From NCBI RefSeq assembly GCF_053078305.1, contig NZ_CP166879.1: a stretch of DNA of 64,000 bases. One strand, given 5' to 3'. The translations under genes and the position numbers were made by a program. The notes below the pieces were generated by a model. The model did not search any database. It saw nothing but the letters and a program-made list of their open reading frames with translations, and was not told the origin of the DNA. Shown here one piece after another: positions 42,216 through 48,001 of the stretch (positions are counted from its first letter, which is position 1; each line of letters starts with the position of its first letter).

Positions 42216-43292
42216 ATGAAATTGACGCTGAAAAACCTTAGCATGGCGATCATGATGAGCACTATAGTCATGGGAAGCAGTGCAATGGCGGCGGACAGCA
42301 ACGAAAAAATAGTCATCGCCCATCGCGGTGCCAGTGGATATTTGCCGGAGCATACGCTGCCAGCAAAAGCGATGGCGTATGCGCAGGGAGCGGATTATCT
42401 GGAACAGGATTTGGTGATGACCAAAGACGACCATCTGGTTGTTCTGCATGACCATTACCTCGATCGTGTTACTGATGTTGCCGATCGTTTCCCGGATCGG
42501 GCGCGCAAAGACGGTCGTTACTACGCGATAGATTTCACGCTGGATGAAATTAAGTCGTTGAAATTTACCGAAGGTTTCGATATTGAAAACGGTAAAAAAG
42601 TGCAGACTTATCCAGGGCGTTTCCCAATGGGTAAGTCCGACTTCCGGGTGCACACATTTGAAGAAGAGATTGAATTTGTTCAGGGGTTAAATCACTCTAC
42701 CGGGAAAAATATCGGTATCTATCCAGAAATCAAAGCGCCGTGGTTCCATCATCAGGAAGGGAAGGATATTGCGGCAAAAACGCTGGAAGTGCTGAAGAAA
42801 TATGGTTACACCGGTAAAGACGATAAAGTTTATTTGCAATGTTTTGATGCTGATGAGCTGAAGCGTATTAAGAATGAGCTGGAACCCAAAATGGGCATGG
42901 ATCTCAATCTGGTACAGCTGATTGCCTATACCGACTGGAATGAAACGCAGCAGAAACAGCCGGACGGAAGCTGGGTTAATTACAACTACGACTGGATGTT
43001 TAAGCCGGGTGCCATGAAACAGGTGGCGGAATATGCAGATGGTATTGGTCCGGATTACCATATGTTGATTGAGGAGACATCGCAGCCGGGTAATATCAAA
43101 CTCACTGGCATGGTGCAAGATGCTCAGCAGAACAAGCTGGTAGTGCATCCTTATACCGTGCGGTCAGATAAACTGCCTGAATACACAACTGATGTGAATC
43201 AGTTATATGATGCTCTGTATAACAAAGCGGGTGTAAATGGGTTGTTTACTGATTTCCCTGATAAAGCGGTTAAATTCCTTAATAAAGAGTAA
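42216..43292 (+). CDS. glpQ: periplasmic glycerophosphodiester phosphodiesterase
   Basis: 358 aa from MKLTLKNLSMAIMMSTIVMGSSAMA signal peptide; GDPD motif IVIAHRGASGYLPEHT. Confidence 0.93.
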   Translation: MKLTLKNLSMAIMMSTIVMGSSAMAADSNEKIVIAHRGASGYLPEHTLPAKAMAYAQGADYLEQDLVMTKDDHLVVLHDHYLDRVTDVADRFPDRARKDGRYYAIDFTLDEIKSLKFTEGFDIENGKKVQTYPGRFPMGKSDFRVHTFEEEIEFVQGLNHSTGKNIGIYPEIKAPWFHHQEGKDIAAKTLEVLKKYGYTGKDDKVYLQCFDADELKRIKNELEPKMGMDLNLVQLIAYTDWNETQQKQPDGSWVNYNYDWMFKPGAMKQVAEYADGIGPDYHMLIEETSQPGNIKLTGMVQDAQQNKLVVHPYTVRSDKLPEYTTDVNQLYDALYNKAGVNGLFTDFPDKAVKFLNKE

Positions 43293-43301
43293 TGCTGCTA
43301 C

Positions 43302-43332
43302 TGCAGGATGGCGTTCATGCGCCATCCTCTGC
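43302..43332 (+). terminator. hairpin downstream of glpQ
   Basis: ggatggcgc atgaacgc gccatcc inverted repeat; weak T-run. Confidence 0.45.
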
Positions 43333-43515
43333 TAAAGCGAAATAATGCTACTACCGGTTATTCTTTTCATTAACCGGTGCGTCCTGTAAAAAAGATGCCA
43401 ACATAATTTTCGTAAAACTCATTCGTTAAAAAAGCTAACACTGGGCATTGTTATTCTTTAAACAGTATGAATAGGTCTCAATAATAAATTGTAATGCAGT
43501 TTATACTGTAAAGTA

Positions 43516-44622
43516 TTATTCTAATTTCGGAAAGGTAAAGAAAATATTAATGTATCTTATTAATTTATCATATTGTTCTTGGGTGAATGCTGTTTGCACA
43601 CCTTCAGGGCAATATTTACCAGTAATAACCAGTTGCCCATTGCTGTGTTGTACCATTAAACCTTCTTTTTCCTTTGGATCTACAAACTTAGAATTATCAA
43701 ATGTGAAGATATTTTTTTCCTGTTTTGAGTAAGCAAAGAAATCTCGTGTATAGCTGAAACTATCATTTATTAATGGTGCTAACTTTTTGTCGGTGATATC
43801 GATAAGCTCACCACTTAATTTATTGATGTATTTCATTTGGTTCAATTTTTTCTGCGCTTGTACAATTTGCTTGTAGGTATTTTTAATTTCCTTAGAAGAA
43901 TTCTTGAATTTATCATAGCGTTCCTCGGAGGATGCGTATTTGTACCATTCTGTATTTTTTCTCAGAATGTAGTAGCAGGTCTGTATATTTTTTTGATCGC
44001 TGTAAAGTTGACTTTTAATACTTTCCTTACTGCTGGTTTTATAAGGTTTATCAGAGCTGTTTATTTTTGAAATGTCTTTTTCTGTCGGTGACTGGACCGT
44101 GTTGTGGATATTTTCTTTTATAACATGTTCATTGATGATGTTAATTGCAGTTTCATATTCATTTAAGTTTATTGTTCTTTGTGAAATAAACCCTTCTTTG
44201 CTTTCGACACTCAAAATACCTTCGTTGTTTTCACCTCGGGTAAAGGTAAGGGTATAGGGTTCATAATCCGCTGCAAATTCATTTTTATACGTTATGACAT
44301 GTTCGACAAAATGTCTTATTGGTACGAAACCATAACTGTGAACGTCAATTTTTTGGGTCTTGATACTATCAATTGCATCTGAGGCTTTCGTGAAAAAAGC
44401 CAATAAATTAGCTATGCTGTCTGTTGAGGTTGATAACCCGTATCTACTTTGAGATATTTTTAGAAACTCATCGCAAAAAAACTCAAGTTTGGCGGTTTGT
44501 TGTGATTCTTTGTAAATTTCTGCTGGTTGCAATTTATTATTTTGTAAAATATTATAGCGAGATAAGTGAATAGATGTATCTGGCATAAATGATTCCTTGT
44601 ATTGTGAGTTAACAAGATACAA
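43516..44622 (-). CDS. hypothetical protein, 368 aa, strongly low-GC, no recognisable domain
   Basis: Long uninterrupted ORF in DNA of roughly one-third GC by eye; Lys/Asn/Ser/Tyr-rich, no signal peptide or TM segment; absent from my recollection of the K-12 glpQ-inaA interval. Confidence 0.55.
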   Translation of the reverse strand: MYLVNSQYKESFMPDTSIHLSRYNILQNNKLQPAEIYKESQQTAKLEFFCDEFLKISQSRYGLSTSTDSIANLLAFFTKASDAIDSIKTQKIDVHSYGFVPIRHFVEHVITYKNEFAADYEPYTLTFTRGENNEGILSVESKEGFISQRTINLNEYETAINIINEHVIKENIHNTVQSPTEKDISKINSSDKPYKTSSKESIKSQLYSDQKNIQTCYYILRKNTEWYKYASSEERYDKFKNSSKEIKNTYKQIVQAQKKLNQMKYINKLSGELIDITDKKLAPLINDSFSYTRDFFAYSKQEKNIFTFDNSKFVDPKEKEGLMVQHSNGQLVITGKYCPEGVQTAFTQEQYDKLIRYINIFFTFPKLE

Positions 44623-45049
44623 TTTAATCTTTGCAGAATATATTCACTATCAAATTTAGCTCATTTTATTACGAAGACCTTTACGCATGTTAGAAAGTAT
44701 CATTATTGTTAATAAATACGGTAATAAGTAACAAACAGATATTGATAGCTTCCCTGACAAGTTATTAGGTATCCCACTTGAAGATTGAGAATGGCTCCAG
44801 AGTAAACTGTGTACTGTTCGCCGGAGTGTCATTACTCTCAACAATCGGATTTGACAGTGAGTCGGGCGCTTCATACCGGTTTCTACCTGGAGTCATTGTC
44901 ACTTCTCCCAACTGGATAAATATATCGCCAATTCACAAAGTGGGCCAAAATCAGGTGAAAACGAATTATTACGCCTGGTAAAGGCTATAGTACAACTAAG
45001 TGTGGCGAATCAGGCAGTCTTGCATTTGTCATCAATCTCATGTCTTACA

Positions 45050-45928
45050 TCAAATTTTTCCACTCACCACTAGTTGTTCCGTACACATTTGTAGTAAAAA
45101 CAGTGGACTGCCTTCTACCGGCTTTTCTTTAGCCAGCAACGAAATCTGTCGATAGAAGGTTGGTTCGAGAGGAACGGAACACAATTCATCTGCAATGGTT
45201 TTCAGCGTTAACTCTGGTAATAAGGCGATGCCTAATCCCTGTCGAATAAAACTGATCGCTGTATCCGGGTGATTAAATTCATATTTTATCTGTGGGGTAA
45301 TATTCTTTTCTTTAAATAGTGCCATAATGCTTAATTCATAGCGTCCTTTACTAATGATTAATGGTTCACCCATTAATTCTTCCACTGTAATAGTGCTGTT
45401 TTTTGCCAGAGCATGGTTGGGCGGTAACACTACGGTGAATTTATCCTGATAAATGGGCACGGAGTACATTCCGCTCACCGGAAAATGAACAAAACCGGCA
45501 TCAATGGATTCATTCTGAAGCGAATCAATAATCGCTGTGCTATTTTCCTCAAAAGGAATAATTTTTATATTCGGATGATGAATTTCAAAGTAGCGAATCA
45601 CAACCGGTAAGATACAGGCGCAGACGCTGGGGAAACAACCAAGTCTCAGCGTTCTTTGAGGGTTCTGCTTTTCCTGCTCGGCTATCTCTTTTACTGCGTT
45701 AACTTCCCGATTAATGGCGCGCAGATGTTGCACAATGCGATGACCTGCTGTGGTCAGTTGTATAGCTTTACGGCGATCGCGTAACAGTATATTCACACCA
45801 AGTTCTTGTTCGAGGGCAGCAATTGCCTGACTTACCGCCGACTGCGTCATGAACAATCGCTTGCTGGCTTCAGTAAAGCCACCGTAATCCAGCACGGCGA
45901 GTAAAGAATTTATTTGGGTAAGAGTCAT
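45050..45928 (-). CDS. yfaH: LysR-family transcriptional regulator (intact counterpart of K-12 yfaH pseudogene)
   Basis: 292 aa; N-terminal LysR HTH MTLTQINSLLAVLDYGGFTEASKRLFMTQSAVSQAIAALEQELG; divergent from an MFS transporter gene. Confidence 0.75.
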   Translation of the reverse strand: MTLTQINSLLAVLDYGGFTEASKRLFMTQSAVSQAIAALEQELGVNILLRDRRKAIQLTTAGHRIVQHLRAINREVNAVKEIAEQEKQNPQRTLRLGCFPSVCACILPVVIRYFEIHHPNIKIIPFEENSTAIIDSLQNESIDAGFVHFPVSGMYSVPIYQDKFTVVLPPNHALAKNSTITVEELMGEPLIISKGRYELSIMALFKEKNITPQIKYEFNHPDTAISFIRQGLGIALLPELTLKTIADELCSVPLEPTFYRQISLLAKEKPVEGSPLFLLQMCTEQLVVSGKI

Positions 45929-46079
45929 TAGAGTTTGCTAATCAATAATATTAAAACGATTAATTTCTCTAATAGCATGCCGCCATTTATACTTCTGTTC
46001 TGCAAAGTACATCACAATTTGACGCAACCGCAGTAACGGGAGTGTTGTCTGCGTGCGTCATCCTGACAGGCGGTAGGGT

Positions 46080-47270
46080 ATGAAAGAGAAGTTATGGACG
46101 AAAGATTTTTGGGCAATCACCATTATTAGCTTTATTATCTTTTTCGTCTTTTATGTGTTGCTGACCTTATTACCTATTTATATCTCCGATCGTCTCCATG
46201 CATCCCCTGATAAAGCTGGTCTGCTGGTGACATTATTTTTAATTGCGGCGATTGTTATTCGACCCTTTGCCGGGCAATGGGTGGGTAAATATTCGAATAA
46301 AACTATTCTGGTGCTCTCTTCTCTGGCCTTTTTGGTGGTCACTGCGCTGTATCCTTTTTGCCACTCAATAGAATCACTGCTTTTTATTAGGGTGCTTCAT
46401 GGTATTACCTTCGGGGTTATCACAACGGTAAAGGGAACGATTTCCGCGCGGCTGATCCCGGCCTCCCGACGTGGGGAGGGCATCAGTTTTTTCTCTCTGG
46501 CAATGGGGCTGGCAATGGTGGTCGGGCCGTGGATTGGCCTGAATATGGCGCGCTGGGAGGCCTTTAATATGGCTTTCTGGTTATGTACTGGCGTTGCGGC
46601 GGTGGGGATTATCCTGTCGCTGATTATGACCGTGCCGCCGGTTATCAGCCATGCCGACGGTTCAAAGCCAAAGATGGGCTTCGCCGCCATGTTCGATCGC
46701 GCGGCGTTGCCATTTGCGATGGTCACCTTTTTTATGACCTTTTCGTATGCCGGGGTTTCTGCTTTTCTGGCGCTTTATGCTCGCGAACTTAACCTGATGT
46801 CGGCGGCCAGTAATTTCCTGCTTTGCTACGCCATCTTCCTGATGATCTGCCGTACCTTTACCGGCAATGTCTGCGACAAAAAAGGACCGAAATATGTGGT
46901 TTACCCTTGCCTTGTGTTCTTTACGGTAGGACTGGTGGTTCTCGGCTACACCCAGGGAAGCATAATGATGGTTGTTTCTGGCGCGTTGATTGGTATCGGG
47001 TATGGTTCCGTGACGCCAGTTTTTCAGACGCAGATTATCAGTTCAGTGGAACCCCATAAAATTGGTGTCGCAAACTCCCTCTTCTTCAATGCGATGGATG
47101 CAGGCCTGGCGCTGGGAGCCTGTGTGATGGGGATGATGGTTGCACATACTGGCTACCGAATGATTTATCTGCTGGGCGCACTATTAGTGGTAGTGGCTGG
47201 TGGAGTCTATGCGCTGCAAATGAAGGGTAAAAGCGGTGTCGTGCTAGTAGTGGCAAAAGAAATTCATTAA
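46080..47270 (+). CDS. MFS-type transporter (12 TM), substrate unknown
   Basis: 396-aa hydrophobic ORF with MFS signature GQWVGKYSNK-type loop; divergently paired with the LysR regulator. Confidence 0.75.
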   Translation: MKEKLWTKDFWAITIISFIIFFVFYVLLTLLPIYISDRLHASPDKAGLLVTLFLIAAIVIRPFAGQWVGKYSNKTILVLSSLAFLVVTALYPFCHSIESLLFIRVLHGITFGVITTVKGTISARLIPASRRGEGISFFSLAMGLAMVVGPWIGLNMARWEAFNMAFWLCTGVAAVGIILSLIMTVPPVISHADGSKPKMGFAAMFDRAALPFAMVTFFMTFSYAGVSAFLALYARELNLMSAASNFLLCYAIFLMICRTFTGNVCDKKGPKYVVYPCLVFFTVGLVVLGYTQGSIMMVVSGALIGIGYGSVTPVFQTQIISSVEPHKIGVANSLFFNAMDAGLALGACVMGMMVAHTGYRMIYLLGALLVVVAGGVYALQMKGKSGVVLVVAKEIH

Positions 47271-47350: not shown

Positions 47351-48001
47351 ATGGCAGTTTCAGCAAAGCACGACGAATTTAATCACTGGTGGGCAACAGA
47401 GGGCGACTGGGTTGAAGAGCCTAACTATCGCCGTAATGGTATGAGCGGGGTGCAATGCGTCGAGCGCAACGGCAAAAAGCTATATGTAAAGCGCATGACG
47501 CATCATCTGTTTCATTCCGTACGTTATCCTTTCGGCCGACCAACGATTGTCCGTGAGGTTGCGGTAATTAAAGAACTGGAACGGGCCGGTGTCATCGTGC
47601 CGAAGATCGTTTTTGGTGAAGCGGTGAAAATTGAGGGTGAATGGCGAGCGTTGCTGGTGACTGAAGATATGGCGGGGTTCATCAGCATTGCTGACTGGTA
47701 TGCCCAGCATGCAGTATCGCCTTATTCTGACGAAGTACGGCAAGCCATGTTGAAAGCAGTGGCGCTGGCGTTTAAGAAAATGCATAGCATTAATCGTCAG
47801 CATGGCTGTTGTTATGTTCGCCATATCTATGTGAAAACAGAAGGTAAGGCAGAAGCTGGTTTTCTTGACCTGGAGAAAAGTCGTCGCCGCTTGCGTCGCC
47901 ATAAAGCGATCAATCATGACTTCCGCCAGCTGGAAAAATATCTGGAGCCAATTCCCAAAGCGGACTGGGAGCAGGTAAAAGCGTATTACTACGCCATGTA
48001 A
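47351..48001 (+). CDS. inaA: acid-inducible Kdo/WaaP-family kinase-like protein InaA
   Basis: 216-aa ORF MAVSAKHDEFNHWWATEGDWVEEPNYRRNGMSGVQ... Confidence 0.88.
   Translation: MAVSAKHDEFNHWWATEGDWVEEPNYRRNGMSGVQCVERNGKKLYVKRMTHHLFHSVRYPFGRPTIVREVAVIKELERAGVIVPKIVFGEAVKIEGEWRALLVTEDMAGFISIADWYAQHAVSPYSDEVRQAMLKAVALAFKKMHSINRQHGCCYVRHIYVKTEGKAEAGFLDLEKSRRRLRRHKAINHDFRQLEKYLEPIPKADWEQVKAYYYAM

Follow-up and report, generated by a model that had tools for sequence, protein, structure and literature searches.

The window analysed here, a 64,000-nucleotide stretch of contig NZ_CP166879.1 (NCBI RefSeq assembly GCF_053078305.1), contains an AT-rich islet between glpQ and a gene for a LysR-family regulator, and on this islet lies a protein-coding gene, referred to below as the orphan. 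It is probably a taxonomically restricted ORFan, foreign in origin, AT-rich, weakly constrained and dispensable. The gene has already been catalogued as hypothetical, and is an ordinary ORFan without a known family. Foreign DNA of 1.71 kb carrying the orphan would have entered the glpQ-LysR spacer of an Escherichia coli lineage, and its later spread, in E. coli and in cryptic clade I, would have been by vertical descent and homologous recombination of the flanks only.

The insertion can be placed with respect to three features:

43329 to 45040 (boundaries accurate to 1-3 nt), no strand assigned: the islet, an insertion of about 1.71 kb; K-12 aligns with the window as far as 43328 and again from 45038.
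43306 to 43327, plus strand: the glpQ terminator hairpin (GGATGGCG-n6-CGCCATCC), read from the sequence, kept in K-12 and E. albertii and forming the left edge of the insertion.
45050 to 45928, minus strand: the LysR-family gene (z3495); a scan of 43200-46100 found no minus-strand terminator.

The islet occupies the interval from the hairpin to a point 9 bp past the LysR stop codon, and both junctions are common to all ten of the carrier loci aligned. By BLAST, K-12 lacks window positions 43329-45037 and, separately, 45297-47163; the first-pass annotation of this DNA had given the orphan no counterpart in K-12, and was correct. In E. albertii, Salmonella and Citrobacter (loci L018, L019 and L020) the order is nrdAB-yfaE-MFS-LysR-glpQ, where MFS is a major facilitator superfamily transporter gene, with LysR and glpQ convergent and separated by spacers of 42 bp, 115 bp and 60 bp respectively; the islet DNA is absent from all three loci. 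The junction in K-12 aligns collinearly with the spacer of E. albertii, both having the hairpin followed by CCATCC/TGTC. Because these two junctions are collinear and the outgroups lack islet DNA, the empty site appears to be ancestral, and the reading of the islet as an E. coli-specific insertion into the ancestral glpQ-LysR spacer is well supported. The converse, a deletion from K-12 through microhomology between the ATCCTCTG and ATCTCATG repeats, was rejected on the same outgroup comparison. The islet itself is a mosaic of an AT-rich module (approximately 43329-44760, GC content around 0.31) and a module with a GC content of 0.43 (approximately 44760-45040), and contains no transposase, integrase, tRNA or clear target duplication.

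Two different glpQ 3' ends and terminators are found in E. coli. The type shared by K-12 and the window (43280-43330) has a protein ending in LNKE and the GGATGGCG hairpin; the alternative, present in O157:H7 (L005, 2270-2300) and in locus L016 (5110-5170), is one codon longer, ends in LHKDN and has a GGCATCCGG hairpin. Islet sequence has taken the place of the second arm of the latter hairpin in O157:H7, and recombination between the haplotypes is therefore indicated.

The open reading frame (ORF) originally listed at 43516..44622 on the minus strand is present, its 368 codons representing the maximal reading from a TTG start. The probable start is instead the ATG at 44586, which gives a gene of 356 codons (43516..44586, minus strand); RefSeq uses the same start (WP_001134028.1), and it is preceded by a ribosome binding site:

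44594 to 44598, minus strand: Shine-Dalgarno sequence AAGGA, read from the sequence, 7 nt 5' of the ATG and kept in all alleles.

Measured in 300-nt windows, GC content is 0.28-0.35 over 43250-44750, as against 0.45-0.61 in glpQ, glpT and glpA; the gene itself has a GC content of 0.325, and its GC content at third codon positions (GC3) is 0.31, compared to 0.51-0.64 in glpA, glpT, glpQ, MFS and inaA. The compositional contrast with the flanking genes, part of the original description, is thus real, as is the noted abundance of lysine, asparagine, serine and tyrosine: the protein comprises 10.7% K, 9.6% I, 9.3% S, 7.0% N and 6.2% Y, and is also rich in T. It has a mass of 41.5 kDa, an isoelectric point (pI) of 7.6 and a grand average of hydropathy of -0.68. 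Neither a transmembrane segment nor a Sec-type h-region was identified, the maximum 19-residue Kyte-Doolittle hydropathy being 0.86, and no family could be assigned, all of which agrees with the earlier failure to see a signal peptide, membrane segment or recognisable motif. The predicted product is well supported as a soluble cytoplasmic protein of this size. The probability of 356 open codons arising by chance at this composition is approximately 5e-13; the remaining five frames over the gene have 18-39 stops each, and the coding strand is A-rich.

Nine alleles were collected: those of the window, O157:H7 (L005), four RefSeq loci (L006-L009), two divergent E. coli (L010 and L011) and the clade I strain TW10509 (L012). 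Eight are intact, each having exactly 356 codons, and the at least 136 substitutions among these eight include no stop codon (P 3e-4 to 4e-3, the stop-creating share of random changes being taken as approximately 4-6%). A pair of indels distinguishes the allele family to which the window and O157:H7 belong:

43959 to 43994, minus strand: compensated frameshift segment; a -1 change in an A8 run and a +1 change in an A5 run 35 nt downstream.

The 12 residues of this segment read KNIQTCYYILRK in the window and O157 alleles, and K(K/E)Y(T/A)DLLLHSEK in the ancestral form. On its own, the -1 or the +1 indel would end the protein early, at residue 248 or 225; in combination, they restore the C-terminal 146 codons. 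As the reading frame was restored following the frameshift, the C-terminal region appears to be needed. The ratio of nonsynonymous to synonymous substitution rates (dN/dS) of the orphan is 0.45-0.75 overall by the Nei-Gojobori method, that of the adjacent glpQ in the same genomes being 0.01-0.05, and in the deepest allele pairs it is significantly below one (P 0.002-0.01). It is well supported that selection keeps the whole frame open yet tolerates around half of all amino acid changes, and a weak but real constraint is the best-supported account of these data.

The compensated indels also touch on how the gene is annotated. In all four of the genomes examined (L006-L009, with the gene at 2501-3571 of each locus), the NCBI pipeline PGAP, and hence RefSeq, tags intact, ancestral-frame alleles of 356 codons as 'frameshifted' pseudogenes, because the reference protein used by PGAP is the derived allele with the compensated indels. 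Judged by identity class, this mislabelling may touch roughly two thirds of the carrier genomes.

Other alleles show local peculiarities. A 60-nt coding block at 43725-43784 on the minus strand (residues 268-287 approximately, KLAPLINDSFSYTRDFFAYS) has zero nucleotide diversity over ten alleles, whilst the rest of the gene is fast-evolving. In TW10509 (L012, 5628-6699), a 1-nt insertion at nucleotide 189 of the gene splits it into ORFs of 70 aa and 232 aa. In a group of human isolates (L017, 2501-4348), an IS1A insertion sequence interrupts the orphan near codon 260, and all of these also have the LysR/MFS deletion; IS1-disrupted copies were found in 8 of 40 evenly sampled carriers, around a fifth.

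The orphan is a real protein gene, since its open frame is improbable by chance, no stops occur among its substitutions, its frameshift has been compensated, its dN/dS is below one and it has a Shine-Dalgarno sequence. The idea that it is merely a chance ORF in AT-rich DNA would fit with the lack of a domain or of any homologue outside Escherichia, the low confidence of the structural models and the relaxed dN/dS, but the observations just listed, along with the A-rich coding strand, effectively refute it. More evidence can be brought in favour of a decaying relic, functional in the donor or soon after arrival and now persisting through inertia and hitch-hiking with its core flanks: dN/dS is elevated overall and reaches at least one for several close pairs, most genomes do not have the gene, IS1 and the TW10509 frameshift have disrupted it in some that do, and a stretch of 12 residues could be replaced wholesale by a shift of frame. 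However, a relic would not be expected to lack nonsense changes, to have its frameshift compensated rather than left, to show significant constraint in the deepest comparisons or to retain a coding block devoid of diversity, and we regard this explanation as unlikely. A gene under weak constraint is the preferred reading.

The population survey covered 5,426 complete E. coli genomes. The islet is carried by 1,052 (19%), always as a single chromosomal copy at the glpQ-LysR site, whilst 3,149 (58%) have the K-12-type empty junction; approximately 1,225 others have further arrangements, such as glpQ joined to inaA through loss of everything between them (L015), or a divergent LysR-MFS haplotype that is intact but has no islet (L016). 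The orphan is present without LysR-MFS in L008, L011, L012 and L017, and the reverse is true of L016; the islet and LysR-MFS are inherited independently. Between TW10509 and E. coli, synonymous divergence (dS) is 0.31-0.37 in glpQ, and only 0.02-0.05 in the orphan when compared with L010 and L011. Apart from the 1-nt insertion, the TW10509 islet is close to identical to that of some E. coli, although glpQ has diverged strongly, and homologous recombination in the flanks therefore appears to carry the islet from lineage to lineage. Carriers include many isolates that are not enterohaemorrhagic E. coli (EHEC), from dogs, poultry, wildlife and human extraintestinal sites. That the orphan is dispensable is well supported, most E. 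coli having never had it or having lost it. The gene is therefore far from universally conserved with normal codon usage, and its insertion relative to the outgroups, low GC3 and restriction to E. coli uphold the suggestion, made from the window alone, of a horizontally acquired accessory gene.

Searches for relatives of the protein matched no characterised family. Pfam, NCBIfam, PADLOC and PHROG contained no credible family, an NCBIfam match to TarA (15.5 bits, where the cutoff is 350) and Pfam matches with E values of 0.16-0.19 being discarded as noise, and there were zero matches to PDB sequences using either the single sequence or a profile. Only Escherichia alleles of at least 79% identity were recovered from 5.8 billion clusters, whether these were searched by word index with the sequence alone or by profile at E<=5. 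An exhaustive HMMER search of 1.84 billion representatives returned fragments of the orphan gene and one protein of 39% identity, P0035, along with P0036 and P0037, which are of low complexity and have long matches in multiple stretches. P0035 was rejected as a distant homologue: its contig (L004, from Logan SRR9924671) is a noisy long-read copy of the orphan's own locus, including LysR and MFS, collinear with positions 43881-46637 of the window at 71% identity with 395 gaps. The translated ORFs of this uncorrected long-read assembly mimic distant homologues in protein searches.

No relative of the orphan was detected in 50,697 phage records (by tblastn and blastn), in plasmids or in IMG/VR contigs. 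A set comprising one genome per prokaryotic species gave a single match, on a contig resembling E. coli that had been assigned to a 'Collinsella' metagenome-assembled genome. This 3.5-kb 'Collinsella sp.' contig (L014, JAIJJM010000334.1) has the islet at approximately 97% nucleotide identity and the gene at 93% amino acid identity, and is almost certainly a binning contaminant. An ENA protein of 408 aa, P0023, joins 35% of the orphan (at 98% identity) to the nucleotidyltransferase domains PF01467 and PF05636, and is probably a chimeric assembly, not a real fusion.

These searches bear directly on a proposed role as a single-gene anti-phage defence or abortive infection protein, which was originally argued for on the grounds that a lone, AT-rich, patchily distributed accessory gene without an assignable family is of the kind often involved in defence. 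No family in PADLOC-DB 2.0.0 matched at E<=1. Nor is the site a defence island or hotspot, its states being empty, islet-bearing or deleted; the neighbouring genes are glpQ, LysR, MFS and inaA, with no mobility or defence genes adjacent. Furthermore, the family is confined to Escherichia, whereas defence genes spread widely, and its alleles are old and syntenic, not subject to rapid turnover. A defence function is consequently improbable. None of the phage-defence, effector or toxin-like roles first suggested for the gene found support, there being no PADLOC match, effector context or toxin family.

The alignment of alleles and the secondary structure predictions, themselves of low confidence, define two further features of the protein:

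43993 to 44121, minus strand: hypervariable, probably disordered linker (residues 156-198 approximately) separating acidic N-terminal and basic C-terminal regions.
44299 to 44313, minus strand: HFVEH (an HxxEH motif), residues 92-96, on a predicted helix and invariant in all alleles.

The region N-terminal to the linker (residues 1-155) is conserved, acidic (pI 5.2) and predicted to be of mixed alpha and beta structure, and that C-terminal to it is conserved and basic (pI 9.1). Nucleotide diversity reaches 0.10-0.18 in the linker, compared with approximately 0.03 elsewhere in the gene, and between allele classes dS is 0.5-0.67 and the nonsynonymous divergence (dN) 0.23-0.28; residues 163-181 have predicted local distance difference test (pLDDT) scores below 50 and no secondary structure in the full-length AlphaFold2 model. 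Together, this suggests a three-region architecture. Structure prediction and fold comparison, which had been proposed as a check, gave no usable structure from the shallow alignment. The mean pLDDT was 40.6 for the full-length protein (from an alignment of 13 sequences) and 41.9 for the N-terminal domain alone (six sequences), and Foldseek comparison with the PDB gave a best E value of 0.42, template modelling scores of no more than 0.18 and no enriched fold, amounting to noise from a low-confidence model; no family was gained. The N- and C-terminal halves can be aligned collinearly at 22% identity with a common predicted order of helix, beta-meander and helix, but when compared with 2,000 shuffles such a duplication has a z value of just 1.3 for the window allele, rising to 2.4 for P0007, and its probability according to hhalign is 0.1%. 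Helix 90-103/104, which bears the HFVEH motif, is predicted in both low-confidence models. The motif is only a lead towards a putative metal site; if a single function had to be guessed, a metal-dependent hydrolase would be our choice, albeit an unlikely one.

The sequence between the orphan and LysR was first described as approximately 400 bp of AT-rich, apparently non-coding DNA following the gene. In fact, it is around 460 bp in length (44587..45049) and lies 5' of the gene, not after it; its GC content rises to as much as 0.43 in 44750-45049, and it holds two features of interest:

44765 to 44896, minus strand: 43-codon ORF (MTPGRNRYEAPDSLS(K/N)PIVES...), preceded by a GGAG-like site and lying 178 nt 5' of the orphan.
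44901 to 44981, plus strand: diverged 3' remnant of an inaA-like gene (lipopolysaccharide kinase family), comprising the last 27 codons and the stop; it is opposite in strand to the orphan and occupies the end of the islet nearest LysR.

None of the ten alleles interrupts the 43-codon ORF, which annotators call repeatedly and which belongs to a cluster of 75 members, all 'hypothetical' proteins of E. coli. Nearly all changes within it are nonsynonymous, such that it lacks a coding signature. The most conserved stretch of the islet is 44623-44862, with a nucleotide diversity of 0.007-0.03. The 43-codon ORF could encode a small protein or act as a leader, or it could be regulatory DNA that is conserved. 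Another upstream ORF, of 72 aa, was rejected as a gene because it contains stops in L009 and L012. Were the 43-codon ORF and the orphan to constitute a two-gene, toxin-antitoxin-like module, this would account for the small frame being open in every allele, having a GGAG-like site, falling where the islet is most conserved and being called independently in several annotations. However, the gap of 178 nt is unlike the tight coupling of toxin-antitoxin genes, the small ORF is without a coding signature, and no toxin or antitoxin family was matched in the domain libraries or PADLOC; such a module is highly improbable.

Rfam identified nothing relevant in the islet (a Yar_1 match, with an E value of 0.046 and below the gathering score, falls outside it), the folding of the upstream 314 nt is not significant (z -1.34), and promoter-like sites number six, fewer than the 10.0 +- 3.4 found in shuffled sequences. 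Between LysR and the orphan the minus strand has no predicted intrinsic terminator, and read-through from z3495 into the orphan might therefore be possible. The AT content of the islet is well above the genome average, as for foreign DNA silenced by H-NS, and its base composition would be consistent with H-NS silencing and conditional expression.

Three points weigh against the interpretation of the orphan as a weakly constrained, foreign gene with these properties. The proposed silencing by H-NS and read-through from LysR are deductions that draw only on base composition and gene order. The suggestion of a hydrolase depends on one motif of five residues, HxxEH or HExxH arising in 1.8% of 20,000 shuffles before correction for other motifs, and has neither support from M16 peptidase families nor a usable structure behind it. 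Finally, the shallow allele pairs with dN/dS of at least one raise the possibility that part of the carrier population may be drifting neutrally.

The inaA-like remnant provides some indication of where the islet originated. Its alignment of 83 nt with inaA of the window (47919-48001, plus strand) has 73% identity (E 3e-7 when the whole window is searched); in most alleles it keeps the reading frame without gaps, and it shares 14 of 28 residues with InaA; using tblastn, no inaA homology was found in the islet beyond the last 27 or so codons. The E. albertii locus has a truncated true inaA in its yfaE-MFS spacer (aa 171-216; L018, 3499-3636) that is 80% identical to E. coli InaA, whilst inaA is absent between yfaE and MFS in the loci of Salmonella and Citrobacter, and so inaA at that position seems to be specific to Escherichia. 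The islet copy is far more diverged than the inaA of E. albertii, and its presumed source is therefore a different inaA homologue carried by the donor. This tail points to a cellular, inaA-bearing donor context, and inaA homologues ending in ...FSQLDKYISPIHKVGQNQVKTNYYAW offer a concrete handle by which the donor might be traced.

The genes alongside the islet have a different history. O-island 97 (OI-97) of EHEC O157:H7 consists of the MFS transporter gene z3494 and the LysR regulator gene z3495, and has been described as 'laterally acquired' (PMC10819331). E. albertii, Salmonella and Citrobacter all have LysR-MFS (window 45050-47270) at the corresponding locus, and the identities of the LysR orthologues track the species tree, at 90% in E. 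albertii, 81% in Salmonella, approximately 77% in Citrobacter and approximately 69% in Klebsiella. Since the outgroups keep these genes and their identities follow the species tree, OI-97 is ancestral and was lost from K-12, leaving yfaH as a deletion remnant. Contrary to the published description (PMC10819331), OI-97 was thus not laterally acquired.

The orphan is therefore a cleanly documented example of its kind in bacteria, with an insertion site known to the base pair and the ancestral empty site surviving in both K-12 and E. albertii. Several independent tests show that it is coding, making it a tractable case in which to study the role and origin of young, lineage-restricted genes; should it have no function, it would simply be an ordinary ORFan. 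Its analysis has also exposed two errors, namely the labelling of intact alleles as frameshifted pseudogenes and the description of the ancestral OI-97 as laterally acquired.

In comparison with known systems, the closest neighbour is OI-97 itself, which adjoins the orphan: the orphan is on the same strand as z3495, and both are absent from K-12 and catalogued as O157-specific relative to it. They differ in that OI-97 is, by the reconstruction above, ancestral enterobacterial DNA lost through deletion in K-12, whilst the orphan islet would be a true insertion without an orthologue.

The invariant HFVEH motif on a predicted helix resembles that of the M16 inverzincins, pitrilysin and insulysin. 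M16 enzymes have an HxxEH zinc motif with the signature HF(L/C)EH(M), and a distal glutamate ligand approximately 75 residues downstream. The orphan differs in having no match to Pfam PF00675, even at E<=10, no PDB sequence match and no confident fold; its candidate for the distal glutamate, position 169, is E or D and lies inside the variable linker, in models with the low pLDDT values given above.

A further possibility is that the orphan encodes a type III secretion substrate or effector, whether for the system of the LEE (locus of enterocyte effacement) or for E. coli type III secretion system 2 (ETT2), in pathogenic E. coli. Non-LEE (Nle) effectors of EHEC and enteropathogenic E. coli are encoded by AT-rich genes and are soluble proteins rich in K, N, I, S and Y that lack a Sec signal; the orphan is similar in all of these respects, and is present in O157:H7. 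However, its N-terminus is unremarkable (S, T, P, N and Q make up 0.40 of residues 2-26, ranking fourth of the 48 ORFs in the window in what is a crude composition test), it has no homologue in another attaching and effacing pathogen or genus, including E. albertii, it lies outside any prophage or exchangeable effector locus, and it is common in non-EHEC isolates. An effector is hence distinctly improbable, and an ORFan remains the preferred classification.

ORFans of E. coli were reportedly characterised by Daubin and Ochman in Genome Research in 2004, and are said to be shorter, the 356 aa of the orphan being long by comparison. A phage origin is usually proposed for such genes. The orphan departs from this type in its length, in having no phage relative among PHROG, the phage records or IMG/VR, and in its association with an inaA-like tail. 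It is like them in having no assignable function, and in its taxonomic restriction, its AT-richness, its rapid but sub-neutral Ka/Ks and its patchy distribution across strains.

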